In this document: in pieces, positions 2,599-58,222 of the stretch
How positions within the stretch are numbered: the first letter of the stretch is position 1
Layout of the letters: each line of letters starts with the position of its first letter
NCBI GenBank assembly: GCA_041662245.1
Contig: JBAZSW010000006.1
Location: 10,442-74,441 of the forward strand
DNA: 64,000 bases
Source: Parcubacteria group bacterium
GTDB lineage: Bacteria; Patescibacteriota; Minisyncoccia; Moranbacterales; UBA9337
Direction of reading: 5' to 3'
The notes under the pieces: model-generated
What the model was told of the DNA's origin: nothing
What the model saw: the letters and a program-made list of their open reading frames with translations, nothing else
Databases searched by the model: none
Program-made: the position numbers and the translations under genes

Positions 2599-3021
2599 TT
2601 ACAATAGTGCTACAATCGTTATTTTTTCTCTTCCGAGAGTCACTGCAATTTTGCATGCTTCCTCCCCTTCTCCCGTAAAAACATCGATTTTCCTCCCCTT
2701 TATTTTTTTACCAGTATCTCTGGCAACACCAATTCCATAACCCGGAATAATTAGCACTGTCCCAAAGGGGATAATCCTAGGATCAACTGCAACAGTGCCT
2801 ATGCTGGGAGTAGTTTTTGATTTAGTAATTTTACCTAAACCATTCATCTCCACATCTTTTCTGTAACTACCTCTGGCAAATTTTTTTTGTTTTTCCAGGG
2901 GCTTATAATAAGCCGTACGAACAACTTTTATTTGCTCAATTTTACCAAGCTCCGCTGCTTCGCTAAGCATGCTAAAACTTAATAACAAAAAACAAGCCAT
3001 CACAATTACAATTAATCTCAA
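2599..3021 (-). CDS. 3D domain (MltA-like) secreted protein
   Basis: Signal peptide. 'TAYY...GTVAVDPRIIPFGTVLIIPGYGIGVARDTG' is typical of the 3D domain. Confidence 0.6.
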   Translation of the reverse strand: MRLIVIVMACFLLLSFSMLSEAAELGKIEQIKVVRTAYYKPLEKQKKFARGSYRKDVEMNGLGKITKSKTTPSIGTVAVDPRIIPFGTVLIIPGYGIGVARDTGKKIKGRKIDVFTGEGEEACKIAVTLGREKITIVALL

Positions 3022-5725: not shown

Positions 5726-6010
5726 CTAATATTGAGAATCTATGCGAGGAAATATTTGTAACACCAAATACCCCGCTAAGACATAAACTACAAGTGCAAT
5801 CAGGGTAGCAAAATCAATTACAAACCCTCCTAAATCTAGACTTGGCAAAATCCCCACAAAGGGTTTCACTAGTGAAGTTGTAGCATTATAAATCCAAGCC
5901 ACAAAAGGAGTGTGTGTATTAACCGCAAAAAATTTAAAGATAAAACGAAGCGACAGCAAAAGCTCCACAATTGATACTAAAACACTTATTAATGTTCGTG
6001 CAATTCCCAT
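5726..6010 (-). CDS. YggT family membrane protein
   Basis: About 90 aa, two TM segments, 'LRFIFKFF...' pattern typical of YggT/Ycf19. Confidence 0.55.
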   Translation of the reverse strand: MGIARTLISVLVSIVELLLSLRFIFKFFAVNTHTPFVAWIYNATTSLVKPFVGILPSLDLGGFVIDFATLIALVVYVLAGYLVLQIFPRIDSQY

Positions 6011-6096: not shown

Positions 6097-8658
6097 TTAA
6101 TAAAATTTAAATTTAAATAACTTCAATATCTCAAACCACAATAAACTTGCCACTGAAACTACACTAATTAATAACAATTCTCCGATACTAACTGGAGCCA
6201 TATGAAACAAATTAGAAAAGAAAGGCACATATAAAACAATAAAAAGACAAATAATTGCTCCACCTATGACAAAAAGCAATGCCTTATTTCTAGTCAAAAT
6301 AGTTCTGTACATTGTTTTGTGCCAAGAAAGATTAACTACTATTAAAATAAGATTTGATAAAACAAGTGAAACAAAGGCAAATGAACGAACAGCTTCTTCG
6401 CTTCTATTTGTTTTAATCGCATAAAAAAATAATAAAAAAGTTGTTAATAAAATTCCAAGTCCTTGTAATAAGCTTACCCCAACGGTTCTTTTGTTAAAAA
6501 TGGAATCGTTGACATCTCTTGGTGGTCGATGCATCGTGCTTGATGATTCTTTTTCGGATTCAAAAACTGTCGAGCAAGCAGGATCAATTATTAATTCCAA
6601 AAAAGCAATATGCGCTGGCAAAAGTACCACCGGAAAATTAAAAAATAATGGCAAAAGCGCTACTCCAGCAATTGGAATATGTACAGCCAAAATATAACCC
6701 GAAGCTTTTTTTAAATTAGCATAGATACGTCGTCCCAAACGAACTGCATCCACAATAGAAGAAAAATCATCATTTAAAAGAACTAACGCCGAAGCTTCGC
6801 GGGCTACATCTGTACCCCGTTGCCCCATCGCAATCCCGATATCAGCAGCTTTAAGTGCTGGAGCGTCATTAACTCCATCACCTGTCATTGCCACTATTTC
6901 ATTATTCGATTTAAGTGCATCAATAATTTGTAGTTTTTGTTCCGGCGCCACTCGCGCAAAAATGTTTGTTTTTGTTATTCTTTCTTTGAGCTCATACGGA
7001 TGCATCTTGCTCATTTCATCACCCAAGATAAATAATTCTGGATTTTTAATACCAATTTTTTTAGCAATAAATTGAGCAGTTCCGGGATAATCTCCGGTTA
7101 TCATAATCACCCTAATGCCCGCTTGGTAGGCTTGCGCGATTGCTCCTGAAGCTGTATTTCTCGGCAAGTCAACAAAACCAAAAAATCCAGCAAATTTAAA
7201 ATCAAAGTCGTGCTGATTATTTGGCAATTCACTCTTGGAAAAATTAGCCTTTGCTGCTCCCAATACTCTTAAACCTCTACCAGACATATCATTTACAACT
7301 TTCAACAATTTCTTTTTTTCTTCTTCGGTAATATGACATAAATCCAAAATTGCCTCTGGTGTTCCTTTAGAAGCTATCAAATAATTATTATTTTTTGTTT
7401 TCCAAACATGCGACAGGGCAATTAATTCTTTTGACAAAGGATATTCTTTGATTAGAAATGAATCATCTAATGTTTCTTTTTTATTAATTAAACATCTAGC
7501 GCAAGACTTTTTAAGTTCTTTTTCAATAGGATCAAATGGATCTTGCTGACTGGAAAGTAATCCTATCTCAAGCAAATTGATAAATTTTAATGGCAAATCA
7601 TTATTTTTTGTATTTTTTATTTCGAAAAATTCTTCCTTAGAATAAAGAATATCCAATTTCATTTTATTTACAGTAAGTGTCCCAGTTTTATCAGTACAAA
7701 GAACTGTTGCAGCACCCAACGTTTCAATAGCAGCGGAACGTCTAGTTAAAACCATTTTTTTTGAGATACGCCAAGCTCCTAATGTAAAAAAGATTATTAA
7801 AACCACGGGAAATTCTTCGGGAAGCATCGACATACTTAAAGCTAATCCCGCCAAAAAACCTTCCAAAAAATTGCCTCTTGCAAAATAATAAACAAGAACG
7901 AAAGCGATACAAACAATGATACCAAACGCTCCCATCCAACGTGCCACCTTGGAAATTTCTTTACTCAAACGAGTGTCTTCGCTAGTGATTGATTCTAAGC
8001 TTTTGCCGATTTTCCCAATTTTTGTATTAATTCCCGTAAATAAAACCTTTGCAACGCCTCGGCCACTGACCACCAAAGAACCTGCATACACGAGAGAAAC
8101 ATTCGTAGCGCCTATTTTAATTGATTTATTGTCTTCATTTCTTTCGGATTTTCGAACAGGAACAGATTCTCCAGTCAAAAGAGATTCATCCGCATATAAA
8201 TTTTCACAATTTAAAATTAATGCATCAGCAGCAATGCGGTCACCTTCTCTTATTATCATGATATCCCCACGTACCACTTCGCGACCGGAAATTCTTTTTT
8301 GGTCACCATCTCTTATAACTAAAGCCCTAGGACTGGAAAGATTACGCAAGGCATCCAATGTTTTTTCGGTTTTATGCTCTTGATAAAAAGTTATTCCAAT
8401 AACCACAATAATGAAAGAAATAAGTATCAAAGCGTCTTGCAATTCTCCTATCAAAAAGTAAATTGATCCCGCCGTAACTAGAATGAGTAGCATAGGTTCC
8501 TTAATGACACCTAAAAATATTGAAAAAGCACTCTGTTTTTTTTGTGAAGGAAGTTCATTAAATCCTTCTCGCGCAATAATTTTTTTAGCTTGTTTTTCCG
8601 TGACTCCGCTGTATTCGATTTTGTCCTTCACTGGTTTCATAAAAAAATGTTTTATCAA
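6097..8658 (-). CDS. cation-transporting P-type ATPase (Ca2+/Mg2+ type)
   Basis: 'DKTGTLT' phosphorylation motif, 'TGDGVNDAPALK' hinge motif, about 10 TM helices. Confidence 0.85.
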   Translation of the reverse strand: MIKHFFMKPVKDKIEYSGVTEKQAKKIIAREGFNELPSQKKQSAFSIFLGVIKEPMLLILVTAGSIYFLIGELQDALILISFIIVVIGITFYQEHKTEKTLDALRNLSSPRALVIRDGDQKRISGREVVRGDIMIIREGDRIAADALILNCENLYADESLLTGESVPVRKSERNEDNKSIKIGATNVSLVYAGSLVVSGRGVAKVLFTGINTKIGKIGKSLESITSEDTRLSKEISKVARWMGAFGIIVCIAFVLVYYFARGNFLEGFLAGLALSMSMLPEEFPVVLIIFFTLGAWRISKKMVLTRRSAAIETLGAATVLCTDKTGTLTVNKMKLDILYSKEEFFEIKNTKNNDLPLKFINLLEIGLLSSQQDPFDPIEKELKKSCARCLINKKETLDDSFLIKEYPLSKELIALSHVWKTKNNNYLIASKGTPEAILDLCHITEEEKKKLLKVVNDMSGRGLRVLGAAKANFSKSELPNNQHDFDFKFAGFFGFVDLPRNTASGAIAQAYQAGIRVIMITGDYPGTAQFIAKKIGIKNPELFILGDEMSKMHPYELKERITKTNIFARVAPEQKLQIIDALKSNNEIVAMTGDGVNDAPALKAADIGIAMGQRGTDVAREASALVLLNDDFSSIVDAVRLGRRIYANLKKASGYILAVHIPIAGVALLPLFFNFPVVLLPAHIAFLELIIDPACSTVFESEKESSSTMHRPPRDVNDSIFNKRTVGVSLLQGLGILLTTFLLFFYAIKTNRSEEAVRSFAFVSLVLSNLILIVVNLSWHKTMYRTILTRNKALLFVIGGAIICLFIVLYVPFFSNLFHMAPVSIGELLLISVVSVASLLWFEILKLFKFKFY

Positions 8659-10605: not shown

Positions 10606-10679
10606 AAATAATCTATACTAATTTATATTAGAATAGTATATCATTTATTAAAATATGTCAAATTGATTTTAGTTTAATA

Positions 10680-10708
10680 AAAAACACCCTACAAATAAGG
10701 GTGCTCTG
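10680..10708 (-). terminator. rho-independent terminator
   Basis: Hairpin caccctacaaataagggtg flanked by an A/T-run. Confidence 0.4.
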
Positions 10709-10802
10709 TCTATTTTTTATTTAAAGATATTTTTACATATCTCATATAATAACTAACGCTCATAACCACAAACTGCCTACAAGATTTTACTATCTCTTTG
10801 GA

Positions 10803-11321
10803 TTATATATTTTTTAAATAATCAACAGCCTCCCCAATTGATTTAAAAATTGGTATCTTATTTTTTCGAGCAATTTTTTGCATATATTTTCGATGATTTT
10901 TAACTTGATCTAAGGCATCACTCTTTGCCCCACCGTCATAATTATTTGCTTCTCGATATTTGATATATTTCTTATTTATACTCCAATCAGGCAAAACTAT
11001 AGCATCTGGCATCAACCAATAACAAGAGGCGCCCATAATCCATAATCCCGCCTCTTTGGCTTGCTTGGTGATGATATCACTTTTTTGTTCAACTTCATTT
11101 ATCACATCGATACCTTCTGTCCACCAATTGGTCTGCGGATGTGCATTTGTCGCCATCCAAATCTCATCACCATCTATCCAGTCTTGTTTTGCTTGATTTT
11201 TTACAAAATAAGTTTTACCGCTTCCTGAGGGTGCCAAAATAAAAAATCCCTTAGTATGAGTAACATATTTTTCCCGAAACTTTTTTAGGACATCCTCTCC
11301 ATCACAAAAAATTTGAAACAT
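10803..11321 (-). CDS. P-loop NTPase, function unknown
   Basis: Walker A 'APSGSGKTYF', 172 aa. Confidence 0.4.
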   Translation of the reverse strand: MFQIFCDGEDVLKKFREKYVTHTKGFFILAPSGSGKTYFVKNQAKQDWIDGDEIWMATNAHPQTNWWTEGIDVINEVEQKSDIITKQAKEAGLWIMGASCYWLMPDAIVLPDWSINKKYIKYREANNYDGGAKSDALDQVKNHRKYMQKIARKNKIPIFKSIGEAVDYLKNI

Positions 11322-11333
11322 ATATTTTTAAGA

Positions 11334-12194
11334 TTAAGTTATTTCATATTCCCTCCCTTGAATTTTGCTACTAACCTTCCCTTTGCAATTAATATTGAGG
11401 CTAATCCCAGCACCGTAATCAACTGCCAGATAATTATTAGAATTCATTTCTGCTACTTTATTTTTAGTATAAGGACTGATTGTGTCATAATGAGAAACCG
11501 GCCAAATGATAAGTCTTTTTCCGGAATGTTTTTTATGATAATAATCTGAAAAGTTTTTTAAAGTTTCTATAAATTTGTTATATCGCATCAAAATATCCTC
11601 TGGCCCTTCAGCTCCCAATTTTTTTCTTTCATCTTTTTCCCAATCTTCTTCAAAAGCTTGCCAAAATTGTTGCGTCAAACTACCATACTTGGATTTTAAA
11701 TATTCGAAAAACTCTGGTGATTGATTTATGAATCTTGGTTCTTGAATAGCTTTATTTTTTGTCGGAACTGGACTATCATTTTTTTCACTTACCCCCGTTC
11801 TCGAATTCAAAAGCTGATTCTTATTCAAATCGTATTTTTTAAATACATCTAGTACTCCTTTTACAACTTCGCTAGCTGTTTCAAAGCTTCGCATACCCTT
11901 GGCTTTTCCATAGTCAGTATTGCTAGCAATTACCAAAATATCAACATTTTTACGCTCATCACCTGATAGATCTTCAAATTTGTTTGTTAAAATTTCCACT
12001 GTTTGCTCGTAAGCTTTTTTTGCATCTTCTCGTTCGAGACTGCCTGATCTTTCATGCTCGACATCTCTGATATACTTTTCGTGTCTCTGCATCACAATTT
12101 CTGTTTCGCCTACACTAGGCATTTCTCTTGAAATATCAGACCTTGTTATTTTTTCAAGCGGTTTTGGCATGTTAGCTTCGGGCGACTTAAACAT
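11334..12194 (-). CDS. hypothetical protein
   Basis: 286-aa ORF, no family recognised. Confidence 0.4.
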   Translation of the reverse strand: MFKSPEANMPKPLEKITRSDISREMPSVGETEIVMQRHEKYIRDVEHERSGSLEREDAKKAYEQTVEILTNKFEDLSGDERKNVDILVIASNTDYGKAKGMRSFETASEVVKGVLDVFKKYDLNKNQLLNSRTGVSEKNDSPVPTKNKAIQEPRFINQSPEFFEYLKSKYGSLTQQFWQAFEEDWEKDERKKLGAEGPEDILMRYNKFIETLKNFSDYYHKKHSGKRLIIWPVSHYDTISPYTKNKVAEMNSNNYLAVDYGAGISLNINCKGKVSSKIQGREYEIT

Positions 12195-12903: not shown

Positions 12904-14100
12904 TTATTTTTCTCCGCTAAAAAACTTTAACAATGAATCTGGAGGATTTTTGATCATTTCTTGACCCAAAATCGATTCCAATGAAACCTTGCGATTCCGA
13001 ATACTATGCTCCCAAATTTTAATGAACTCCGGATACAAAACAACCATCGCTTTCATTATTTCTTCGGGTGCAGGGGCCAATTGACCTTCTTGAAAAAGCA
13101 AACTTTGTTGAGCATTGGCTGCCTCAAGTCTGATAAAACTACAGGAATCATAAGAAGTATGCTCTGGATAAATAAAAAGTTTAAATTCTTTATCAAAACC
13201 ATACTCTATCTGCAGATTCATATACAAATGACGATGTAAGGCGATTCGTTTTGAATACACAACTCTTCCTTCGTCATTGGACCTGACACAATCAATAGGT
13301 TGAGAGATCTTAATCACCTGAGTCATATCGCCATAACGTTTATCACGAATACAAACCGTTTTGTAAAATCTGGAATATTGCCCTTCTTTTTTAGGTTTAA
13401 TCCTGACGATTCGAGTGCAAATTCCAAAATTCCGAAACAAAATATTTGCACAAGCAATGGGGCGACCATCACCGGTTTTTTCTTCGACAAAAGATAGTTT
13501 ATAACCCAGTTCACTAAGCTCTTGGATATTTCCCTCGTAAGCCTCCGCTTCGTTTCCTTGCCAAAACTTCTCCCCAAGTTCTTTTGGGGCAAAAAAATTA
13601 TCAATGCTACTTATGCCACTCCAACAGTCAACGCTACTTGTCGCCGTATCAGAATCTTTTTCAGAGCAAAACTCCCTCAGAAAAAGAGGCCAGGTAGAGC
13701 AATCAACCGCCCTTAAAAAATCAGGCAAAAACATTATACGTGTAGCGAAATCTAGACGACTCTTTTCAAATCGACCAGGAAAATCGGTAGGTAAACCAAA
13801 GATAAACATATCTGATAGACGCCACCCCTCAGGAGTCTGCAAATAATCCGATCTATTTTCTTTCGCGATCATTTTCCAAGCCTTCACTGCCTTTCTCATC
13901 AACCTTATCAATTCTATTTTATGCCCGAAATCTCTGAATTGCGAGCTAACGAAGTTATCAATAGAATTGACTGAAGGAGCTTCCTTGACCCATTCGCGTA
14001 AAATTGGATGGCGGAAAGCCCAAGTTGCGTCTATGATCAGTTCCGGCAAACACATTTTTTTCTCTCGTTCTTCCATTTCCTTTCTGTCGTCCTCGTTCAT
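12904..14100 (-). CDS. hypothetical protein
   Basis: 398-aa ORF, no family recognised. Confidence 0.4.
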   Translation of the reverse strand: MNEDDRKEMEEREKKMCLPELIIDATWAFRHPILREWVKEAPSVNSIDNFVSSQFRDFGHKIELIRLMRKAVKAWKMIAKENRSDYLQTPEGWRLSDMFIFGLPTDFPGRFEKSRLDFATRIMFLPDFLRAVDCSTWPLFLREFCSEKDSDTATSSVDCWSGISSIDNFFAPKELGEKFWQGNEAEAYEGNIQELSELGYKLSFVEEKTGDGRPIACANILFRNFGICTRIVRIKPKKEGQYSRFYKTVCIRDKRYGDMTQVIKISQPIDCVRSNDEGRVVYSKRIALHRHLYMNLQIEYGFDKEFKLFIYPEHTSYDSCSFIRLEAANAQQSLLFQEGQLAPAPEEIMKAMVVLYPEFIKIWEHSIRNRKVSLESILGQEMIKNPPDSLLKFFSGEK

Positions 14101-14400
14101 AATGCTCTCCTTTTTTGTTTCACCTTGACCAGCAAGGCAAAAAATTATGGGGTAATCTCCCCGCTATAAGGAACTTCAATTCTGACCTGCAGAATTGATA
14201 AAAATAGCTTAACTTATAAATATTTTACTGTCAATTTAATTGGAAATTAAAAAAACAGCCCCCAGAAAGAAACCATTTTCAGTATACACGCCGTAGTAAA
14301 TACAACTAGAAACAACATTTTGGAAAATTGGAACAGAATTGATGTCAGATTACAACGTGCTCAAGCCTTAATGCAACAAATATAATATAAAAAAATAAAG

Positions 14401-14440
14401 AGCCCTCAATGCGCATTAGCATGAGGGCTTCGTTTTTGTA
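14401..14440 (+). terminator. hairpin + T-run (terminator-like)
   Basis: Perfect stem agccctca/tgagggct followed by tcgtttttg. Confidence 0.35.
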
Positions 14441-14724
14441 CTTCGAGTACTTCTTTGCCAGTCCTAGATGCCTTACCTAGGAAAACAACTGAACTGACTT
14501 TTTTCATATCGATATGCAATTTCAATTTTTTGAAACAAACAAACTACGATAATTCAATTAACAACTAAGCAACGTTTTTGGAAAATTTTCTGCGATGTTA
14601 CAATGTTATTGCTTTGCTACAAATTGATTAGATTATCTGCTTACCTAGGAAGCTTGATATCCAATCACGCTGTGCTCTATAATCACTTACTTCTTGATCA
14701 TGTGACATTTTAGCATATATAAAA

Positions 14725-14750
14725 ATATTTGTCAAGGGGCTGACAAATAT
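14725..14750. promoter_or_regulatory. perfect 10-bp-arm palindrome atatttgtca-aggggc-tgacaaatat
   Basis: Seen directly. Candidate dimeric regulator site in an ORF-free accessory region. Confidence 0.3.
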
Positions 14751-14772
14751 AGACTAGTTTAATACGAAAAAT

Positions 14773-14808
14773 AAGGCTTTACGGAGCCTTATTTTGTCAT
14801 TTGCACGG
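14773..14808. repeat. hairpin + 'TTTTGTCATTTGCACGG' module, copy 1
   Basis: Hairpin aaggctttacggagcctt immediately followed by the 17-nt motif. The same motif follows a hairpin at 15753-15792. Confidence 0.5.
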
Positions 14809-15043
14809 AAGAAGGTATACGCTTCGAACTTTGATGGTGGAAAATTGGGAATTTGTTAGTAAAAAAATGGAACGAGCGATGATTTTAATAAAATAAAAAA
14901 GGTGGACAGCAATATAATCTCCAAAGTCGTTTTCTTTTAATTTTTATTAAAAGAATCGTTTCTTTTTTGAATTACATATTTGTCCACCCATTAGCCTATT
15001 TCGAAAAAACAGTCGATTTTACTACTACGAGACTACGTTAACC

Positions 15044-15571
15044 CTAGGAATCAAGCGTCTGGGACAATCCGCAATGCGAAGGAATTCCATTGTCGCCCTT
15101 CCATTTTTCAGAAGACTGACCTTCGCGTATTTTCTTATAGCAATCAACGGCACTTTGGATATTTACGCTTCCGACGCGAATTGTGATGACAGATCGATAT
15201 GCATAAGCGCTGGAATGTATACATGCCGTTGGCACTTCAAACTTCTTATCTGCATATGTCACAGAATATACGGCCTTGCCCATACTGTCAGTGCCCTGCT
15301 TGATGTGATGATTTTCTTCTTTGAGAATGGTATCGTAGATAGTCACCTTTAAAATCTTAAGGCCCTTGAAAATCCGATGAACCTCAAGATTAACCATATC
15401 ATTAAACTTGACATAGACCTCGGGGTTTCCATTTTCACGTATTACCGTGGCGACTCCAAGACTGGTATAATTATAACCCGATTCTTTTTCGCCTTCGCCT
15501 TCATTAAGAATCCCCGCCTTTACCATCCTCCGCAAAGCTGATTTCTTATTGAAATAAATTCTCGCTTCCAC
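15044..15571 (-). CDS. hypothetical protein in a GC-richer patch (GTG start, strong SD AAGGAGA)
   Basis: 175-aa ORF. Local GC is clearly above the window average. SD 'AAGGAGA' lies 7 nt upstream of GTG. No family recognised. Confidence 0.45.
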   Translation of the reverse strand: MEARIYFNKKSALRRMVKAGILNEGEGEKESGYNYTSLGVATVIRENGNPEVYVKFNDMVNLEVHRIFKGLKILKVTIYDTILKEENHHIKQGTDSMGKAVYSVTYADKKFEVPTACIHSSAYAYRSVITIRVGSVNIQSAVDCYKKIREGQSSEKWKGDNGIPSHCGLSQTLDS

Positions 15572-15752
15572 TGTCTGTCTCCTTGTGTGTAATTAAATGG
15601 TTTAATTTCGTTTAGTTTTGTTCTTTTCGACTGTAAATTCTCAAAGGGCTAATGTGAATTGTTTGATACTTATCAATTAATTCAACTTTTTATGATGGCA
15701 CAAAACTAGTACTTTGTCAAATATTTTCCTTGTATGTGTTAATTAAAAATAG

Positions 15753-15792
15753 AAAAACGCCCTTTTTTAGGCGTTTTTTGTCATTTGCACGG
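15753..15792. repeat. hairpin + 'TTTTGTCATTTGCACGG' module, copy 2
   Basis: Hairpin aaaaacgcc-ctttttta-ggcgttttt followed by the identical 17-nt motif. Confidence 0.5.
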
Positions 15793-16092
15793 GGTCGTCA
15801 GGGACGTTAAAACTATTTTTATGAATAAAAAGGGATATATTTATATCCCAGATCTTAGCATGGAGGCTCAAATAAAGGATATCCCAATTATCTCTCCTGT
15901 ATAAATGAATATATCACACTAGCAGATTTACTTTATTAACTCAATTTCATCTGATTAATTTTTAGTTAAATTTCTTCCACATACCTTCTGAAATTATACT
16001 CATTTCGCTATCAATAATTTTAATTGCACCTTGATCATCAAGAGTATAAAAAGTTTCATAAATTATTTTTCTAATTTATTATTATATACGAA

Positions 16093-16965
16093 TTACACAC
16101 CGATTTTCCAGACACCTTTTTCCCTAAAGGCTGGGATATTTTGTCTTCTGGCAGCATTCAAAAGTGCATGCACTGACTGCGAATTCTTTTTTGCATATTC
16201 AGATAATTTAACAATTTCTTCACCTTTCAAATATGTGATTCTTTTATGCAATGATTCCATCAAGGCCAGAGATAAAACTTTTTCCATTGTCTTTGAATTT
16301 TCCTGATGGCGATAATCACCAAATGATTTATAGTACTGTGCTTTTTCCTTGTCACGAATAATTATCATTGGAAGTCCAAGCCTTAAAAATTGATAATTCA
16401 TAAGAACCCTGCCAATTCTTCCATTGCCATCACAAAAAGGATGAATTGTCTCAAAGTCCAAATGAAATTTGGCAATCTTGTCTAAAAAATATTTGTCTAA
16501 ATTGTTAGTATAATAACTTAATATATCATCAACCATTGAATCAACTTTTTCTGGAGCTGGAGCCACATGTGTTCCAACTCGCACATACTCACCAGTTTTT
16601 CGCAGTCGTCCTGCGAATTCATCATTAATTCCGCCAATCAACATCTGATGGAGCAATAAAATTAATTCCTTATCAATATCTTTTTCTTTGGATTTATCTC
16701 GGATATAGTTAATAACCCTAGACAAATTTTTTGCCTCATAAACTTCTCGCACGCTCACATCGCGAGAAACTTCCATTTCCAAAAGGATTTTTTCAGTTTC
16801 TTTTAATGTTAAAGTTGAATTTTCAATAGCATTAGAATTATAAACACTCTCTGGAATTTCAGCCTCATCAAGTAAAACCAGCAGGGACTCTTTCCCTTTG
16901 CGAAGTTTGTCATATTCACTTTTTAGTGCCCCAATGCGCTTTTTAATTGGATTTGTAATTGGCAT
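16093..16965 (-). CDS. Fic/DOC family protein (AMPylase/toxin-like)
   Basis: Canonical Fic motif 'HPFCDGNGRIGR'. Confidence 0.8.
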   Translation of the reverse strand: MPITNPIKKRIGALKSEYDKLRKGKESLLVLLDEAEIPESVYNSNAIENSTLTLKETEKILLEMEVSRDVSVREVYEAKNLSRVINYIRDKSKEKDIDKELILLLHQMLIGGINDEFAGRLRKTGEYVRVGTHVAPAPEKVDSMVDDILSYYTNNLDKYFLDKIAKFHLDFETIHPFCDGNGRIGRVLMNYQFLRLGLPMIIIRDKEKAQYYKSFGDYRHQENSKTMEKVLSLALMESLHKRITYLKGEEIVKLSEYAKKNSQSVHALLNAARRQNIPAFREKGVWKIGV

Positions 16966-17095
16966 ATTTTTTAGTTAATATTATACATTAAGTATACAGT
17001 ATTAACGTATTATTGTCAATATATCGTTAATATTATGATAAAATAAGATAAATTAACTACTTTTTATATGTAATACTAACTATCAGAATCAAAAA

Positions 17096-17118
17096 AGAGG
17101 CTTATGCAAGCCTCAATT
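17096..17118 (-). terminator. rho-independent terminator downstream of tRNA-Trp
   Basis: Perfect 7-bp stem gaggctt-atgc-aagcctc followed by TTTTTT on the minus strand. Confidence 0.55.
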
Positions 17119-17137
17119 TCAGTTCTATTCTCAAGTG

Positions 17138-17208
17138 CACGGGATGTAGGAATCGAACCTACGTCAGAGCTTTTGGAGAGCCCCATATTACCACTATACG
17201 AATCCCGC
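17138..17208 (-). tRNA. tRNA-Trp (anticodon CCA)
   Basis: Hand-folded cloverleaf: acceptor GCGGGAT/ATCCCGT, D-loop AGTGGTA, anticodon stem GGGCT/AGCTC, loop CTCCAAA, T-arm GTAGG-TTCGATT-CCTAC. CCA is not encoded. Confidence 0.8.
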
Positions 17209-17212
17209 AGTA

Positions 17213-17875
17213 TTATTTTGATAACGTTTTGTACAAATCAATTAACTCCTTCCTAATTCTATAATCATAATAACGAACACTTATGCAACCTGGGTAATTC
17301 TCTCTCTTAATCTTTCCTGAATTCTTTTTAAGGAAAGGCTTAATAAATTGCTTTGAAGGAATATTTGTCACTTTTGACCAAAACTCAATTTGTTTTTTAG
17401 GATTATGATAAGAATGTAAATGAATTGATATTCTAAATTTGCTTTCAGAAATAACAAATGATTTTCGAAACATTTTTAAAAAATAGCTAACCATATTAGG
17501 ATCAGAATTAATAAAAGACATCCTGCCTCCATCTAATTTACCACCTTCACACCAATATAGTACGGCACAAACTAACTTAGAAAATGAAATATTATTTTCG
17601 ATATTCTTAAGTTCTTCTAATATTTCTTCACTTTTTCTATGTATTAATTCATTTTCTTTTTCTGTAGCTTCTCGTCTCGTAGCGTTTCCCTTTTCTCTGC
17701 CATCTATACCTAATTTTTCAATTCTGTTCTTAGCATTTGCTGATAATTCAATATCTCTCAACCACAAACTTGCAGTGCTTTTTGAAATATACAAAATTTC
17801 ACTAATTTCTCTAAATGAAAAACCTTTTTTTCTTAAGCTGATTGCTCTCTCTTTTAATTTAAGATTGTGTTTCAT
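17213..17875 (-). CDS. HTH-domain protein of unknown function, located between rpmG and tRNA-Trp
   Basis: 220 aa with an N-terminal helix-turn-helix 'LRKKGFSFREISEILYISKSTASLWL'. No catalytic motif recognised. Confidence 0.45.
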   Translation of the reverse strand: MKHNLKLKERAISLRKKGFSFREISEILYISKSTASLWLRDIELSANAKNRIEKLGIDGREKGNATRREATEKENELIHRKSEEILEELKNIENNISFSKLVCAVLYWCEGGKLDGGRMSFINSDPNMVSYFLKMFRKSFVISESKFRISIHLHSYHNPKKQIEFWSKVTNIPSKQFIKPFLKKNSGKIKRENYPGCISVRYYDYRIRKELIDLYKTLSK

Positions 17876-18893: not shown

Positions 18894-18992
18894 ATAATTA
18901 TTTCTTATATTAAATATTTTAAATAGCATTTTTATCTTCTTCATCTAAGGCTCGCCCTATCATTCGATAGGGCGTCATGTCGGATGACATGG

Positions 18993-19049
18993 CGGACCGA
19001 CGACCTACTGTTTACAAAACAGTTGCTCTACCAACTGAGCTAAGGTGGC
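18993..19049 (-). pseudogene. truncated duplicate of tRNA-Thr(TGT), 5' 57 nt only
   Basis: 57 nt identical to positions 1-57 of the intact tRNA-Thr(TGT) at 18821-18893. The acceptor 3' strand is absent. Followed by two perfect hairpins (18976-18991, 18954-18973). Confidence 0.6.
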
Positions 19050-34755: not shown

Positions 34756-35358
34756 TTATCTATCAAGACAAATCTATAAGCCGGATTCTGTCCCTTAAAA
34801 ATTAATTCAAGGGGGCAATCATTTATCTAGCCATATTGTTACCAATATGATCATTAGCAGCACTCCGCCACTGCATAGCAGTGGAATAATCAAATAACAA
34901 TTTACAAGATACAAACAAATTTCAAATCTCGGAAATCAATATTTCAAACAGGTCTGTTTGAATTATTGGAAACTGATCATTGTTTATTATTTGGAAATCG
35001 CATCTTGATACTTGAAATTTCCAATGCTACGCATTGACGACACGGCCTTGCACCAAGTAGGGTTTACCACGTTCTTCTATTGCTAGAGAACGAGAATTAT
35101 AGCTACAAATTTCATTGCTTCTGCAGAAATGCCAGCAACAAAAAATAAACATTAATTCACTTTTCACGTTTCTCCCATTACTTGTAAGTAATAGGATAGT
35201 ATTGTCTCTGTGGCACTTTCCCGTGATTTATCTCGCGATAAATCAGGTGGGCATTACCCACTACCTATATGTTGATAAATCAACATAGTGTCCGGACTTT
35301 CCTCTCGATATATTTAAAAAATATATCCAGCGATTGCCCGATTTGCCTTGATAGATAA
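34756..35358 (-). ncRNA. rnpB: RNase P RNA (bacterial type A), about 600 nt with expansions
   Basis: Minus-strand 'GAGGAAAGUCCGGACAC' (P4 5' strand, + 35288-35305). 'ACAGAAUCCGGCUUA' (P4 3' strand, + 34776-34790). 'CUAGAUAAAUGAUUG' matches the E. coli 'CUAGAUGAAUGACUG' region. A 19-bp P1 helix pairs the ends (UUAUCUAUCAAGGCAAAUC / GAUUUGUCUUGAUAGAUAA). No genuine ORF in 34.57-35.50 kb. Confidence 0.8.
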
Positions 35359-50625: not shown

Positions 50626-53600
50626 CTACAATTTTCCTCCCGAAATATCGAAAAATCTCTCAAAGAAACTTGTTAACCTATTCAAGACACTTTCTCGTTT
50701 TTGTGTTCGTTCACCACTTGGAGAGAATCGAGATACTGGTGGCAATACCTTTGTAATTGCAGTACCAGTTGTCGCAATATTTCCGTCCCGAAAAGCATTT
50801 TTTATAAACTTATATGTCGCTTCCCTATCAAGATTTTCGTTTTCAATAATTCTGTCTAATTCCTCAATTTTCCTTTCTTCAACAAATTTTTGCCAATCTT
50901 CATCTACAATTGAATGAACATCGAGTGAGGTGATAAACTGATTAATAAGATCTTTTTTATTACGAAGTTCAACACTGGAATCAATCGCTTTATTAATATC
51001 AACCAATAACTCTTTGTTTTTAGCATGATCCTCATGGTACTTTTTAATCAGCCCCAAAACAAAATCAATATTAATCTCAACTTGCTTAATAAGCTCCATT
51101 TCAAAAACCACATCATCATTAACGTTTTCTTTTTCCCCTTCTACGCCTTTGCGAAATTCATTATACAAATCAATATACATACTGTGATAATCCTGCACAT
51201 CACGCTCGGTTAAAATCTCATTGCCAATAAATTCGTCAAAAGTTGTCAAAATATTACGCACACGCAAAACCGCTCCATATAATTTGATAAAGTCTTTTTG
51301 ATCCTGTTCCCCCACAATCCTCTTTCCTGCAGGAAATTTCTCCAAAAGCTCCGCGATCAAACTTTTATACCCTCGCACTTCCTTATCATCACCTGCCTTG
51401 TCGGCAGACAGGTCCATGTAGCCGTTGTAATAATCCTCATAAGCCTTAAGGAGCACGATTCCGCAAGCTTCTTTATCTCCAAAAAGCGCGATAGATTCAT
51501 TGGTCGCTTTTTCTAAATTACGAAAACAAACAATATTTCCAAAAGTTTTTACACTATTCAAAATACGATTGGTTCTAGAAAATGCTTGAAGCAAACCATG
51601 CAAACGTAAATTTTTATCGACCCAAAGAGTGTTTAGAGTTGTCGCGTCAAATCCGGTCAAAAACATATTTACTACAATCAAAATATCTACTTCTCTTTTT
51701 TTAACTCTCTCACTAACATCTTTATAATAATTTTGAAATTTATCTGATGACGTGTCATAAGAAGTTCCAAACATTTTGTTGTAATCAATAATGGCACTTT
51801 CAAGAAAATCACGCGAGCTGATATCAAGTCCGCTGGTGTCCTCGGAATTTTCATCAATCATGCCATCCGAGTCTTCATCATTGACTCCGAAACTGAAAAT
51901 TGTTGCTACTTTTAATCTTTTATCACTTGGTTCATTAGCTAATTGTTTTTTAAACTCAAGATAATATTTTTTTGCCACGTCAATAGACGCAACGGCAAAA
52001 ATTGAGTTGAAGCCCGCTAGTCTCCTGTCCTTAATTTTATAAAAACTATTTCGCTTTGTTTTTTGATCAAAGTGCTCACGAATATACTTTACGATATTTT
52101 CCAGTCGCTCTGGCGCAGACAAAATGGCCTCGCGATCGATATCTCTCACTTTTTCATCTTTAATATTCTCGGCTTCATGAACTGTTGAAACATAGTCAAC
52201 TTTAAATGGCAAAACATTTTTATCCGCAATTGCATCCACAATTGTATAAGTGTGCAATTTTTCACCAAAAGCCTGCTCGGTAGTTTTGAAATCAACTCGC
52301 CCACCAGATGAAGAATTTAGGGCAAAAATAGGCGTCCCGGTAAAGCCGAATAAATGATAATTTTTAAAAGCTTTTACAATACTGGCATGCATATCTCCAA
52401 ATTGGCTGCGATGACATTCGTCAAAAATGATAACCATATGCCCATCAAATATTTCATGCTTGCTATTTTTCCCGATAAATTTATCCAGCTTCTGAATAGT
52501 TGTAACAATTATTCTTGAATTTGAATTTTCTAATTGTTTTTTTAAAATAGCGGTACTGGTATTACTATTGGCGGCGCCTTTTTCAAATTTGTCATATTCT
52601 AACATTGTTTGATAATCCAAATCTTTGCGATCAACCACAAATAATACTTTATCGACATATGGCAATTTGCTTGCCAATTGTGCCGTCTTAAAACTAGTTA
52701 AAGTTTTCCCCGATCCAGTGGTATGCCAAATATATCCGCCAGCTTCTAACGTTCCAAGTTTTTTGTAATTAGTACTGATTTCGATCTTGTTTAAAATTTT
52801 CTCAGTGGCGACAATTTGATAGGGTCGCATAGCCAGCAAAAGTCTATCTGTGGTAAAGACGCAATATTTTGTCAAAATATTTAAAATCGTATGCTTGGCA
52901 AAAAATGTCTTGGCAAAATCCATGAGATCAGTAATCGGTCGATTGGTCGCATCCGCCCACCAACTGGTAAATTCAAAACTATTGCTCGTTTTTTTACCTT
53001 TCTTAATCTTACCTTCAGTTGAATCTTTGATGTGCTGGAATCTGGTTGTATTGCTGTAATATTTTGTATGAGTTCCATTGGAAATAACAAACAATTGCAC
53101 ATATTCGAAAAGTCCGCTCGATGCCCAAAAGCTTTCTCGTTGATACCGATTAATTTGATTAAAAGCTTCAGCGATCGCAACACCACGGCGTTTCAGCTCA
53201 ATATGAACCAATGGCAGTCCGTTTACCAACACCGTCACATCATAACGATTAGCGCGCTGTCCTTCCTCAGTAGCATATTGATTAATAACTTGCAGACTAT
53301 TGTTGTGAATATTTTTCTTGTCGATGAGATCAATATTTTTAAAAGTCCCGTCATCTCGGTCTAATATTTTTGTGCTGTCTTCTTGAATAGTGGCTGTTTT
53401 TTCTTCGATGTTTTGATTGGGATTGGCAATAGTACTGACAAAAAACTTTTCCCATTCAGTATCTGAAAAAGTAAAATTGTTTAGTTTTTCTAGTTGCTGC
53501 CTTAAATTAAGCACCAATTCATCCTCAGAGGTGATGCGCAAATATTCATAAGCTTGAGTTTCCAATTGCTTGATAAAAGCGCGTTCAAGATCGGCTTCGC

Positions 53601-53694
53601 TTTGGTAATTTGCGTCACGCAAAAGATCGCCGTTTGGAATGTACAGACCAACCACGGTACTTTCAGGATTTTGCGCGACTAAATTATATTTCAT
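50626..53694 (-). CDS. hsdR: Type I restriction enzyme R subunit
   Basis: 1022 aa. Helicase motif I 'TGSGKT', motif II 'DECH', SF2 motifs. Confidence 0.9.
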   Translation of the reverse strand: MKYNLVAQNPESTVVGLYIPNGDLLRDANYQSEADLERAFIKQLETQAYEYLRITSEDELVLNLRQQLEKLNNFTFSDTEWEKFFVSTIANPNQNIEEKTATIQEDSTKILDRDDGTFKNIDLIDKKNIHNNSLQVINQYATEEGQRANRYDVTVLVNGLPLVHIELKRRGVAIAEAFNQINRYQRESFWASSGLFEYVQLFVISNGTHTKYYSNTTRFQHIKDSTEGKIKKGKKTSNSFEFTSWWADATNRPITDLMDFAKTFFAKHTILNILTKYCVFTTDRLLLAMRPYQIVATEKILNKIEISTNYKKLGTLEAGGYIWHTTGSGKTLTSFKTAQLASKLPYVDKVLFVVDRKDLDYQTMLEYDKFEKGAANSNTSTAILKKQLENSNSRIIVTTIQKLDKFIGKNSKHEIFDGHMVIIFDECHRSQFGDMHASIVKAFKNYHLFGFTGTPIFALNSSSGGRVDFKTTEQAFGEKLHTYTIVDAIADKNVLPFKVDYVSTVHEAENIKDEKVRDIDREAILSAPERLENIVKYIREHFDQKTKRNSFYKIKDRRLAGFNSIFAVASIDVAKKYYLEFKKQLANEPSDKRLKVATIFSFGVNDEDSDGMIDENSEDTSGLDISSRDFLESAIIDYNKMFGTSYDTSSDKFQNYYKDVSERVKKREVDILIVVNMFLTGFDATTLNTLWVDKNLRLHGLLQAFSRTNRILNSVKTFGNIVCFRNLEKATNESIALFGDKEACGIVLLKAYEDYYNGYMDLSADKAGDDKEVRGYKSLIAELLEKFPAGKRIVGEQDQKDFIKLYGAVLRVRNILTTFDEFIGNEILTERDVQDYHSMYIDLYNEFRKGVEGEKENVNDDVVFEMELIKQVEINIDFVLGLIKKYHEDHAKNKELLVDINKAIDSSVELRNKKDLINQFITSLDVHSIVDEDWQKFVEERKIEELDRIIENENLDREATYKFIKNAFRDGNIATTGTAITKVLPPVSRFSPSGERTQKRESVLNRLTSFFERFFDISGGKL

Positions 53695-53699
53695 ATTTT

Positions 53700-54545
53700 T
53701 TATTTCTTAGTTGGTTTATTTTTTTTCGAAAGTAACACTTTTCTAGCGTTTAAAGAGCTGATTACTTTTTTGCCTGTTTCAGCTTCTAATTTCATACGAG
53801 CCTCCTTGGCGATATTGCCTCCGCGCTGTGCGACAACTCCATGCTCTTGAAACGATTTTGGATTTGATACCTCTGATATTTCCTTGGTAGATAGTTCAGC
53901 TAACATATTCAAGATTAATTCCTTGTTGGTCATATTATCTCGAAGATTTTCTTTTTTTAAATCTTTAAACTTTTTATATTCTTTGGCTGTTTTTCCTGCC
54001 CAGGTTTTATAAATAATATCAGTAAGTGTTGCAAATTCCAAGCCTTCTTTTAGTCCGTATTTTTTCCATTCATCGGTGAGTTCTTTGCGAATCTCAATAC
54101 TTTTAAGTCTTTGATTGATCCAATTTTCTGAATATCCAAGATTTTTATAATCCCACATAGCTTGCTCAATAGAAAGTTCCGGATCTTGCATTTGATCAAG
54201 ACGTTTTTTAGCGACTTCCGCTAACCACAATTTAAAAGGTTCCGCTTTTTTGGAAGGGATTGATTGAATAATACGCAAAATCTGTTCAGTATCAACGACA
54301 TCGGTCAGTCTCATTTTTCCGTCAGGAGTTCTCAATTTCAACTGGTTAGTTATACTAACCACTTCACTTCCCTCCTCCTTTAACCTATTTTTAAGCCATT
54401 TCCAATAATTGCGTGTTTTTTTGTAGTCCGATTGATCGGTAAGAATGGCGATAATATCCAAAACGGAAAACCACCATTTTTCGGCGTGCTCATCCCAAAC
54501 CGTACGAACTTGTTTTTTTTCAAAAAGTTGGATAGCGTTTTTCAT
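53700..54545 (-). CDS. BRO-N domain protein (DinD/antirepressor-like) between hsdS and hsdR
   Basis: N-terminus 'IQLFEKKQVRTVWDEHAEKWWFSVLDIIAILT' fits the Bro-N pattern. 281 aa. Confidence 0.4.
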   Translation of the reverse strand: MKNAIQLFEKKQVRTVWDEHAEKWWFSVLDIIAILTDQSDYKKTRNYWKWLKNRLKEEGSEVVSITNQLKLRTPDGKMRLTDVVDTEQILRIIQSIPSKKAEPFKLWLAEVAKKRLDQMQDPELSIEQAMWDYKNLGYSENWINQRLKSIEIRKELTDEWKKYGLKEGLEFATLTDIIYKTWAGKTAKEYKKFKDLKKENLRDNMTNKELILNMLAELSTKEISEVSNPKSFQEHGVVAQRGGNIAKEARMKLEAETGKKVISSLNARKVLLSKKNKPTKK

Positions 54546-54631
54546 AAAAAATAAAGTTAATAATTAATTGAGGCGAATTCGCCATAATTAAACATTTTCT
54601 ACACGCATCAAATCCGATGGGTTTAAAGTGG

Positions 54632-55765
54632 TCAAATTCGACCACTTAACGGCTTAAATGTCAAAAGCTTCCCCCGGTAATATTCATATTGCGATCTTCG
54701 AGCTTTGAGCTCGGCAGGAAGACCGATTGAAATGTCGTTTACCAAAGCATCAAATTTATCAAGAATTGAAACGATGCGTTTTTGTTCTTCAAGAGAATAT
54801 TTTGGGATTGGAATTTTATTAAGATTTGCTTGATTAAGTTTTGGTTGAGCAGCCCCGCTAATGTATGGAGTTAAATCAATTGAATTCAAATAAAACTCAA
54901 TGAACCTTCGTTCCTCATAAGTTTCAAATTCTAACACATGGGCATGATTATTAATCCAGCTCTTCCCACTTACTGAAAAAGCAATTGGTGTAGATCTGGC
55001 TAGTAAATTAGCTCCGTCTTCAGAAACTAAAAGATAATCACCATCAAATATATAATCTTCAACATAATCGACTATTCCTGAAGCCCCATAATAAGGGATC
55101 TCTCCTTTTGTTCGCACCCCTCTTGTGACTGGCTTTCTTTTTGAATCAAGGTTTAGAGAAATTTTATCAAGAGTTGTAAACTCTAAGTCATCTGAATTTA
55201 AAAGTTTGTCTCTATAATACTCGTATTGCCTCTTTCTCGCTTCTAATTCTGCTTCTAATTCTGCTTCTAGCTCTGTAAAACTATTAAGAATTTTAACAAT
55301 TTCTTTTTGGATGGCAAGGGGCGGGATGGGGATTTTTATTTTTTTTAAAAAACTAAAATGCCTTGTGTATTTACCAGTTTTTAAATAAAAATTATTTAAA
55401 GCATAGTAAAAATATTTTATATCTAATACGCTTTGATTTGTTTTAAGAATCTTAATACCATCTGCACCTTGAGCAAAAGAAAAATCAATATATTTTATTG
55501 CTTCAGTATGGTCTCCAAATATAACGTATGAATCTTTAACAATGACTGCGGCATTATCATCAGTATAGCCAACAATGAAATCTTGCCCTTGATCTATAAT
55601 AGGAAATTCACCTGTTGTTTTGTAATATTTTTTTGTAAGCTTTTTAGGGGGAATGCAGGTTTTTACAACTTTATCTTCAAGTAAAATATCAATATCAAAA
55701 AACTTCACACCATTAGGGCATAGTTCAGCAATTAGTTTTTCGATTTTATTTTGTACCTCTAGCAT
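54632..55765 (-). CDS. hsdS: Type I restriction-modification specificity subunit
   Basis: Two target-recognition domains separated by conserved coiled-coil repeats ('ELEARKRQYEYYRDKLL', 'LKARRSQYEYYRGKLLTF'). Confidence 0.85.
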   Translation of the reverse strand: MLEVQNKIEKLIAELCPNGVKFFDIDILLEDKVVKTCIPPKKLTKKYYKTTGEFPIIDQGQDFIVGYTDDNAAVIVKDSYVIFGDHTEAIKYIDFSFAQGADGIKILKTNQSVLDIKYFYYALNNFYLKTGKYTRHFSFLKKIKIPIPPLAIQKEIVKILNSFTELEAELEAELEARKRQYEYYRDKLLNSDDLEFTTLDKISLNLDSKRKPVTRGVRTKGEIPYYGASGIVDYVEDYIFDGDYLLVSEDGANLLARSTPIAFSVSGKSWINNHAHVLEFETYEERRFIEFYLNSIDLTPYISGAAQPKLNQANLNKIPIPKYSLEEQKRIVSILDKFDALVNDISIGLPAELKARRSQYEYYRGKLLTFKPLSGRI

Positions 55766-55773
55766 AATAATAT

Positions 55774-56778: not shown

Positions 56779-56788
56779 ATTATCATAA

Positions 56789-57676: not shown

Positions 57677-58179
57677 ATTCCTAATTGATTATAGATTTCA
57701 TCTTTATAATAGTAGTCTGTTTTACTTCCTTGTTTTTTAAAATTTTCATGCAAATTGGGCCACTCGCTTATAGCTTTAGCTATAATTGCTTTATTAAAGC
57801 TCACGTGGAGAGATAATTCATTATTCAAAATTGAGGGGCAAAGATTTGAATCTTTGTATCTTAAATTATTTAAATTTACGACAATTATTGGTATTTCTCT
57901 GCTCGAAGCTTGCTCTATTTCCCAACGAACAAACTTATATAGAGACTTTGTGCTATTTCCGACTAATAAGATGAAAACTTTTGTGTTATTTAATCGTTCT
58001 CTAAGTTTTGATTTTATTGTTTCTTCGGAGGAGAAAGACATAAGATTATTTAAATCATGTGCATCAAAAAAATTGAAGGAAGATCCATCAGTTTTTTTCC
58101 ATGCCTGCATTAAGCGATAGTATCTAATATCATTGTCTGCATCAAATGCGACGTAAGTTTTATTTGTGTAAGTATTCAT
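57673..58179 (-). CDS. TIR-like (DUF1863-type) domain protein, ThsB-like
   Basis: 'KTYVAFDADNDIRYY' (cf. 'kvFiSYahkDd') and 'VFILLVGNSTKSLYKFVRWEIEQAS..EIPIIVVNL' (cf. 'vvlvllSpnyleSeWv..Ei..A...g..iiPv') match the DUF1863/TIR-like pattern. 168 aa. Confidence 0.55.
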   Translation of the reverse strand: MNTYTNKTYVAFDADNDIRYYRLMQAWKKTDGSSFNFFDAHDLNNLMSFSSEETIKSKLRERLNNTKVFILLVGNSTKSLYKFVRWEIEQASSREIPIIVVNLNNLRYKDSNLCPSILNNELSLHVSFNKAIIAKAISEWPNLHENFKKQGSKTDYYYKDEIYNQLGI

Positions 58180-58222
58180 ATATCTATTTTATTAATTCTT
58201 TTAATAAATTTGTGATTCTATT

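Follow-up and report, generated by a model that had tools for sequence, protein, structure and literature searches.

What placed a GC-rich gene preceded by an unusually strong Shine-Dalgarno (SD) sequence between two copies of the same 17-nt motif in a stretch with little coding capacity? We addressed this question in a Parcubacteria metagenome-assembled genome (MAG) of the candidate phyla radiation (CPR), of which we covered 64 kb (the whole stretch of DNA analyzed, hereafter the window), and in related loci labeled L001 to L102. The gene is an open reading frame (ORF) of 175 aa, hereafter ORF175, and each of the two 17-mers that flank it abuts a hairpin, forming module 2 upstream and module 1 downstream of the gene. 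The original prediction viewed this arrangement as a small imported cassette delimited by repeated structured elements. Our analysis indicates that the repeated sequence derives from the 3' end of a nearby tRNA-Trp gene and that these partial tRNA-Trp copies are probably attachment (att)-type repeats resulting from successive insertions at tRNA-Trp, which border cassettes carrying mostly a single gene. The coordinates of the features are given in Table 1.

The 17-mer (TTTTGTCATTTGCACGG, or CCGTGCAAATGACAAAA in the gene-strand form) is present in exactly two copies, both on the minus strand and each next to a hairpin on either side of ORF175, as originally predicted; no further copy was found in the 64 kb at up to three mismatches. 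Its first seven nucleotides are identical to the 3' end of the tRNA-Trp gene, which is located 1.3 and 2.3 kb upstream of the two copies on the same strand and ends in ...ATCCCGTG followed by CA, the source of the repeated core. This core, CCGTGCA, corresponds to the last four nucleotides of the acceptor stem, the discriminator base G73 and two nucleotides of the trailer. When the tRNA end is compared together with its trailer (...ATCCCGTGCAcTTGAgAAtA), 13 of the 17 positions match in register, and this is the sole sequence related to the 17-mer in the window. Furthermore, CCGTGCA occurs four times when both strands are considered (1.43 occurrences expected), and three of these sites (17142, 15792 and 14808) are clustered on the minus strand within 2.4 kb.

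The core recurs in register in six related loci (L001, L006, L085, L094, L097 and L102). For instance, L001 encodes an ORF175 homologue sharing 70% identity; just upstream of the promoter of that ORF, where module 2 would be, it has an intact tRNA-Trp, trailer and terminator included, which the alignment places opposite module 2; a second fragment located after the cassette (ATTCCCTTGCCCCGTGCA) matches the tRNA (ATTCCCTCCACCCGTGCA) at 15 of 18 positions. Similar partial copies of tRNA-Trp surround the ORF in L006 and L085. ORF175 and its flanking partial tRNA-Trp copies are found in other Parcubacteria as well, and the cassette is not specific to this genome. Moreover, four loci (L097, L099, L100 and L101) share the synteny of the window (EF-Ts, PSP1, TPR protein, tRNAs and tRNA-Trp) and a Fic gene that is 93% identical. 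In these loci, three further direct copies of the core come after tRNA-Trp; an A-rich spacer and a hairpin follow every one of them, and one (position 2831 of L097) is an exact copy, 20 nt long, of the tRNA sequence that stretches from its T-loop to its 3' end. These comparisons with related genomes (L001, L006, L085, L097 and L099 to L101) establish that the core is a partial, att-like copy of the tRNA-Trp 3' end. The exact 17-mer was also searched in 596 Gb of genome contigs, where its 77 matches are close to the number expected by chance; none has a Parcubacteria record name and one is from a Saccharibacteria MAG.

Downstream of tRNA-Trp, the locus is organized as an array in which the Fic cassette is followed by the module 2 core, the ORF175 cassette, the module 1 core, a small unit (about 0.45 kb) that lacks a long ORF and, finally, a decayed core. 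The ORF175 unit measures 984 bp from repeat to repeat, and the units of the array range from 0.18 to 1.3 kb, most of them carrying one gene and each having its own promoter and terminator. The borders of the units coincide with the core. The translated comparison places the start of the homology that the Fic unit shares with L094 and L097 exactly at the core (17139-17142) and its end at the Fic stop codon, and the trailer of the Fic cassette also follows degenerate cores in these two loci (in L094, CTTGAGAATA..AAATTGAGGCTT.. comes after the degenerate core GGCGTGCA). No terminal inverted repeats were seen by eye at the ends of the Fic unit.

The content and order of the units vary among relatives. 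In the close syntenic relative L097, tRNA-Trp is followed by a 179-nt unit, a 95-aa ORF, Fic, LysM and an ABC transporter, and ORF175 is absent from the locus. L102 carries a 374-aa ORF, the ABC transporter, Fic, a 246-aa ORF and a 307-aa ORF, and L094 carries two tandem Fic genes; the arrays of these two loci extend over at least 5-6 kb, and neither locus contains a tRNA. No decayed copy of the ORF175 cassette was found in 14100-14790 or elsewhere in the window.

In addition to the core, two types of conserved arms precede the cores. Arm B, which spans about 65 nt and includes the Fic terminator hairpin (15832-15849), is found at module 2 of the window; L094 has four copies, L102 two, and L085 and L006 one each. 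Arm A (..GCACGCTGTAATCTGACAT..TCCCAATTTTCCA..) is found at module 1, at a third, degenerate module of the window, twice each in L097 and L102, and once in L006. Among the aligned arm A-type copies, the hairpin is retained while its sequence changes; its position covaries and is the sole conserved structure. The third module, which has a tblastx match to L102, explains the low-coding stretch as well as the exact 11-mer TGGAAAATTGG common to 14321 and 14838. The module at position 6170 of L102 is nearly equal to module 1, including CCGTGCAAATGAaAAAg and the hairpin AAGGCTT..AGCCTT, and this likeness would fit module 1 being a distal junction that retains the original tRNA trailer of the lineage. 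We also asked whether arm A, in which TTCCA and GTTCGAA are present, could be what is left of the half of tRNA-Trp between anticodon and 3' end, but the spacing does not fit.

The hairpins themselves do not belong to the repeat. The original prediction described the same structured module in two copies, but the two hairpins are mutually unrelated (D1, 70% over 50 nt, the 17-mer alone being repeated), and what is repeated is the partial tRNA-Trp 3' end, followed by differing terminators. The stem-loop of module 1 is followed by AUUUUU and, like that of module 2, has the characteristics of a Rho-independent terminator. Both hairpins are ordinary terminators of this type.

Each module combines a partial tRNA-Trp 3'-end copy with an A-rich spacer and a Rho-independent terminator of the ordinary kind. 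Successive insertions at tRNA-Trp would leave partial tRNA copies as direct repeats, each insertion restoring the tRNA and displacing the old 3' end downstream, so that partial tRNAs come to separate the units. The 17-bp identity of the two modules would mark the block of identity at which recombination introduced the 984-bp ORF175 unit; the sequences flanking the two 17-mers are unrelated, which fits an att identity block around this unit. The junctions were presumably made by a tyrosine-type site-specific recombinase, and decayed conventional elements are the most economical explanation of the array. Partial tRNA copies of this kind are known to mark insertion at tRNA genes. Among the hallmarks of tRNA-linked islets, the locus displays the location at a tRNA 3' end, the direct repeats of this end, and presence/absence polymorphism together with atypical composition; an integrase of its own (tyrosine or serine recombinase) was not found among the ORFs of at least 100 aa. 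Of the small imported cassette initially proposed, a self-contained, compositionally atypical unit that lies between direct repeats and is absent from L097 is retained, but the repeats are not structured elements.

ORF175 is a real gene, since it has five homologues with 60-70% protein identity and strongly diverged DNA. Its GC content (0.424) and its GC content at third codon positions (GC3, 0.4375; z = 3.4) are the highest among the 54 ORFs of at least 100 aa, in agreement with the outlier composition noted at the outset. However, the GC-richer patch proposed at the same time is restricted to the ORF: its non-coding flanks are at 0.33 and 0.28, at or below the window mean of 0.329. The genome is SD-poor, with a match of at most 3 nt for 47 of the 54 ORFs and of at least 6 nt for only three, including ORF175, whose AAGGAGA is indeed unusual. 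All three ORFs (2599-3021, 12904-14100 and 15044-15571) are located downstream of tRNA-Trp, in the variable region. With the highest GC3, a rare strong SD and its absence from the syntenic relative, the ORF175 cassette looks imported.

The ORF175 family comprises about 20 clusters at 50% identity, found in CPR-type contexts only, and shares the motifs EQNxHIKQG (in which H89 is invariant), S..DCYxKIREG and WKG. In most genomes its GC3 departs from that of the host locus; it is usually higher (0.525 vs 0.27 in L002, 0.55 vs 0.32 in L088) and is lower in L090 (0.31 vs 0.51). Therefore, the odd composition travels with the gene. No relative was found by sequence search in Pfam, NCBIfam, PHROGs, PADLOC or PDB, and tblastn against phage and plasmid collections gave no match. 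AF2 models were poor with five sequences (pLDDT 50) and reached a pLDDT of 85 and a pTM of 0.78 with a 22-sequence alignment; with the latter model, Foldseek found no match in PDB or BFVD at E 0.001 or better.

From its sequence, the ORF175 unit appears to be a complete insulated transcription unit, with an upstream terminator, a strong sigma-70 promoter, a 5' stem-loop, a CA-rich leader, the strong SD, the ORF, a post-stop box and a 3' rod with a U-run. Its mRNA is predicted to begin near 15686 and to end near 14888. Its non-coding flanks are more conserved than the ORF. The 5' stem-loop shows compensatory differences in L006 and L085, noted by eye without a formal count. A 5' untranslated box and the box that follows the stop codon can pair over about 28 nt through two helices of 7-9 bp. 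This pairing of the mRNA ends is present in both minimum free energy (MFE) and centroid folds (z = -3.8 and -3.9 for the full mRNA), and whole-mRNA folds bring the 5' hairpin, the end pairing and the 3' rod next to one another. We also considered the number of 5'-3' pairs in MFE folds as evidence, but 10 of 31 control genes also have at least 16 pairs; since this count does not discriminate, duplex energies were compared with those of 52 control genes and of non-cognate partners instead. In nine of ten loci the duplex energy ranges from -29.5 to -40.1 kcal/mol vs -18.6±5.8 for the 52 controls, at most two of which reach values as low, and cognate pairs outscore non-cognate ones. Equivalent pairings with entirely different sequences are found in L091, L086, L088 and L089.

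The 3' rod is 96.7% paired across six sequences and far more conserved than the coding sequence. It has seven compensated pairs; shuffles have 2.1±1.1, with none of 500 reaching seven, and slid controls have 0-1. This covariation supports the rod in the closer relatives of ORF175. Several G-U wobbles are located on its mRNA strand, which therefore points to an RNA structure, and its near-invariant unpaired bases may hint at a specific binding partner. Scans of metagenomes and viral sequences with a rod pattern of 22 specified bases yielded no new contigs. In L001, the promoter region of the ORF175 homologue (5847-5869, AAGTTGACAAATGAATAATT) and the 5' arm of the 3' rod (6583-6605, GAGGTGGACAAATGTATAATT) share 83% identity over 23 nt, and strings resembling TTGACAAAT / GGACAAAT recur in the window at 14976, 14725-14750 and 15714.

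The nearest functional analogue is the hbs mRNA of Bacillus subtilis, whose 5' and 3' untranslated regions (UTRs) interact and so limit RNase access and which has a strong SD (PMC5737220). Like it, the ORF175 mRNA is monocistronic, with a structured 5' UTR and a strong SD; unlike it, the pairing is longer (two helices of 7-9 bp), sits immediately between a 5' hairpin and a conserved 3' rod, and is kept through sequence turnover across a protein family, as predicted from sequence alone. By analogy with hbs, the end pairing most likely stabilizes a strongly expressed ORF175 mRNA. In the hok and aapA type I toxin mRNAs, long-distance 5'-3' pairing masks the SD (PMC6733600). The ORF175 mRNA resembles them in having a fold that is conserved across loci and in which both ends of the full-length molecule pair with each other, but it encodes a 175-aa soluble protein instead of a small hydrophobic peptide, no conserved pairing masking the SD was seen by inspection, and a scan of the plus strand opposite the 5' UTR gave no promoter-like site from which an antisense RNA could start.

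Several observations weigh against successive tRNA-Trp insertions. No integrase or recombinase domain was found with Pfam in the ORFs of at least 100 aa of the window, nor any recombinase among the genes called in L001 to L102, and units of this small size cannot be autonomous elements. The stretch of identity shared by the tRNA and module 2 is just 8 nt long, which is short for an att core, and the copy number of the core was counted in 64 kb of the genome. Distant ORF175 homologues (L086 to L091) lie among housekeeping genes with neither tRNA nor flanking repeat, and therefore the gene is not always cassette-borne. Finally, arms A and B precede the cores of many different cargo genes, which simple decay of independent islands does not predict. 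This last point speaks for an integron-like system acting in trans, in which an arm, the CGTGCA core and the terminator would form a dedicated 3' recombination site and a recombinase encoded elsewhere would shuffle the cassettes. The two arm types indeed accompany unrelated cargo (Fic, ABC transporter, ORF175, 246-aa, 374-aa and FecR genes), the units hold one to few genes, their order is shuffled between close relatives with no local integrase found, and the arrays of L102 and L094 are long and located in a tRNA-free locus. However, no recombinase was identified in the window or related loci, the arms have no conserved hairpin, inspection of the arms by eye revealed no inverse core of the integron type, the cassettes, unlike those of integrons, are equipped with promoters of their own, and only a handful of genomes was sampled; the arms may also be P arms of two families of conventional integrative elements. 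We regard this system as unlikely, and we give a similarly low probability to a broader proposal, namely a CPR in-trans cassette system with tRNA-Trp-derived sites in which the ORF175 mRNA ends are a binding platform for its own protein (autoregulation or ribonucleoprotein).

The lack of a nearby recombinase would equally suit an origin that is not site-specific, by local duplication, gene conversion, or homologous or homology-facilitated illegitimate recombination on the tRNA-Trp 3' end. The tRNA-derived length varies from 7-8 nt to 20 nt between copies, and spacers are alike within a genome (CAAATGAC twice in the window, CAGAAA.. in L006), which suggests concerted evolution. Nevertheless, the same position of the core forms a sharp boundary in different genomes, the flanks of the 17-mers are unrelated, unlike in a tandem duplication, and a tRNA, with its 72 nt, offers a short anchor for homology-facilitated recombination, so that such an origin seems rather improbable. 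Much less credit still can be given to modules that are common intergenic terminators sharing the 17-mer by chance or as a generic leader, the outcome that the original prediction had named as its refutation. Although both hairpins with their U-runs resemble ordinary terminators and the matches in 596 Gb are at chance level with none under a Parcubacteria record name, this explanation is largely refuted by a 17-mer that is exact twice and found nowhere else in the window, by a core that matches the tRNA-Trp 3' end and is found again, in register, in the loci of six relatives, and by the clustering of three of the four CCGTGCA sites on one strand. Least likely of all, and rejected, is a transposase function of ORF175 in a small IS200/IS605-like or RAYT-like element whose ends would be the hairpins or inverted repeats. 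The protein is small, inverted repeats of about 28 nt (I3) flank the ORF, and the family shows an invariant His together with a Tyr, nearly invariant, on a helix. However, it matches no Pfam, NCBIfam or PHROG family, Y1 transposases included, and no PDB or BFVD fold; the two module hairpins are unrelated in sequence, unlike similar subterminal ends, conservation between genomes reaches past the inverted repeats to the promoter and 3' rod, the G-U wobbles on the mRNA strand of the rod point to RNA and not to DNA ends, and there is one copy per locus.

Successive insertions at tRNA-Trp, which we retain as the probable explanation, place the array close to known tRNA-linked islands. In Prochlorococcus, partial tRNAs flank elements and scatter through islands shaped by tycheposons after repeated integration (bioRxiv 10.1101/2020.12.28.424599). 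The array resembles such islands or tycheposon remnants by its insertions at a tRNA 3' end, its direct partial-tRNA repeats with several partial tRNAs in series, its cargo that varies between close relatives, its atypical composition and its defence-type gene (Fic / SoFic). It differs from them in that no integrase, integrase fragment or replication module is seen in the window or related loci, in its tiny units (mostly single genes with their own terminator and promoter), in the two conserved arms, and in a tRNA-shared core that goes down to 7-8 nt. With integron cassettes and clusters of attC sites lacking integron-integrases (CALINs) it shares mostly single-gene units that end in a recombination-site-like repeat, a shuffled order and a recombinase not needed inside; it differs from them in that no IntI was found, the arms lack an attC-type hairpin and, by eye, showed no inverse-core motif, a tRNA 3' end is the source of the site, and the cassettes bring their own promoters and terminators.

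Table 1. Positions of the features of the tRNA-Trp array and its surroundings in the window
Feature	Positions	Strand	Basis or remark
Third degenerate module, arm A + decayed core GGCGTGTA (14285-14292)	14280..14360	-	about 80% identical by eye to L097 4925-4990
Bidirectional terminator-like hairpin GAGCCCUCA...UGAGGGCU	14400..14432	both	sequence
Strong promoter-like site TTGACA-17-TAAAAT with TG (extended -10)	14707..14735	-	14735->14707, 11/12 match
Module 1 hairpin AAGGCUCCGUAAAGCCUU + U-run	14765..14791	-	intrinsic terminator; sequence; orthologous hairpin in L102
Module 1 17-mer CCGTGCAAATGACAAAA	14792..14808	-	core 14802-14808
Arm A, ..TCCCAATTTTCCA..GTTCGAAGCG..	14809..14862	-	precedes core; alignments A7, A8
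3' rod, GGUGGACA...UGUCCACC closing a long AU-rich hairpin, then U-run	14888..14988	-	structured terminator
3' strand of long-distance pairing (UCGACUGU..GGCUAAUG), just after stop codon	14989..15016	-	inverted repeat I3, folds, duplex statistics
ORF175, GTG start	15044..15571	-	orphan CPR protein family
Shine-Dalgarno AAGGAGA	15578..15584	-	sequence; SD census
5' strand of 5' UTR-3' UTR pairing (CAUUAGCCC..ACAGUCGA)	15627..15654	-	inverted repeat I3, folds, duplex statistics
5'-terminal stem-loop of ORF175 mRNA	15655..15684	-	in MFE and centroid folds
ORF175 promoter: TTGACA, 17-nt spacer, extended -10	15692..15720	-	scan; conserved in L001, L002, L006, L085
Module 2 hairpin AAAAACGCC...GGCGTTTTT + U-run	15745..15778	-	intrinsic terminator, terminator scan
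Module 2 17-mer CCGTGCAAATGACAAAA	15776..15792	-	core CCGTGCA 15786-15792; aligns with tRNA-Trp 3' end + trailer of L001
Arm B, about 65 nt, TGGGATATAAATAT..TTCATAAAAATAGTTyTAACGTCC..	15793..15856	-	precedes core; alignment A6 with L094 (two copies), L085, L006
Fic gene, HPFxDGNGR motif	16093..16965	-	Pfam PF02661; PADLOC SoFic / PDC-S04; cargo of first cassette
tRNA trailer + terminator hairpin GAGGCTTGCATAAGCCTC + U-run	17090..17136	-	left end of Fic cassette
tRNA-Trp (CCA)	17137..17208	-	ARAGORN, Rfam, sequence; array anchor
L33 gene	17944-18102	-	minus-strand locus order
Thoeris pair, ThsA-Macro	56789-57676	-	within island 50626-59806
Thoeris pair, ThsB-TIR	57673-58179	-	within island 50626-59806

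The stretch beyond module 1 contains other small features. The palindrome with 10-bp arms reported at 14725-14750 is present, and the -35 box of a strong promoter-like site falls inside it. Together with the bidirectional hairpin located further downstream, this site would bound a transcript of about 300 nt (14392-14735, minus strand; fold z = -2.8), which has only an ORF of 33-39 aa and no SD and matches no Rfam family. This segment may be a small non-coding or small-ORF cassette. Both CCUAGG motifs of the predicted transcript lie in small hairpins. The 'ttacctaggaa' motif, initially reported at three sites, is exact at two of them (14472-14483 and 14640-14651), the third (around 15040) being partial and overlapping the ORF stop codon; exact pairs of 11-12-mers occur at about chance frequency in such an AT-rich stretch. 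At the gathering score, Rfam 15 matches in the window were limited to tRNAs and RNase P, and a permissive search of 13900-16300 gave no match with E below 0.7.

Nearly all genes of the window are on the minus strand, in the order EF-Ts, PSP1, TPR protein with a tRNA cluster, L33, a 220-aa helix-turn-helix (HTH) protein, tRNA-Trp, Fic, ORF175 and a 398-aa hypothetical gene. The latter (12904-14100), separated from ORF175 by about 0.95 kb without long ORFs, is another outlier by its GC3 (0.358) and by its SD (AAGGAG), one of just three strong ones. Its homologue in L001 is located at 10670-11902, 4 kb downstream of the ORF175 homologue, and therefore the two orphan genes co-occur in two genomes. 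Fic has thousands of CPR homologues (Parcubacteria, Pacebacteria, Moranbacteria) with 74-94% identity and is unusually conserved for an accessory gene. The 220-aa ORF between L33 and tRNA-Trp (17213-17875, minus strand) has an N-terminal HTH (weak HTH_23 match), and its C-terminal part resembles by eye a homing endonuclease, to which it might be related; no gene was called in the equivalent interval of L097. In the tRNA cluster, a weak partial tRNA match in Rfam (18978-19043, minus strand; 37.7 bits, model positions 7-64), not called by ARAGORN, may be a tRNA remnant or an atypical tRNA. The match to class A RNase P RNA (34761-35349, minus strand) spans 589 nt vs 367 model positions, which implies large insertions. 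Further away, a defence island (50626-59806, minus strand) encodes the type I restriction-modification proteins HsdR, HsdS and HsdM, whose genes are interrupted by a Bro-N protein, a 334-aa ORF with no assigned function and a Thoeris pair.

Beyond the known signature of insertion at tRNA genes, the new features of this locus are miniature self-insulated cassettes without a local integrase, arms that recur before the cores, shuffling among CPR relatives, and an orphan protein family with a conserved mRNA-end architecture. Few bacterial mRNAs have experimentally documented pairing between their 5' and 3' ends; in the ORF175 family, this pairing is kept through complete sequence turnover and provides natural covariation data. 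Moreover, the conservation of the 3' rod above that of the coding sequence suggests an unrecognized RNA-protein or RNA-RNA interaction. The genomes of CPR bacteria are tiny, and how genes are acquired in this group is poorly understood. A cassette array at tRNA-Trp without a local integrase, with content and order that vary among close relatives, would give these bacteria a compact pathway of gene flux; the array already includes a candidate defence gene (Fic / SoFic).

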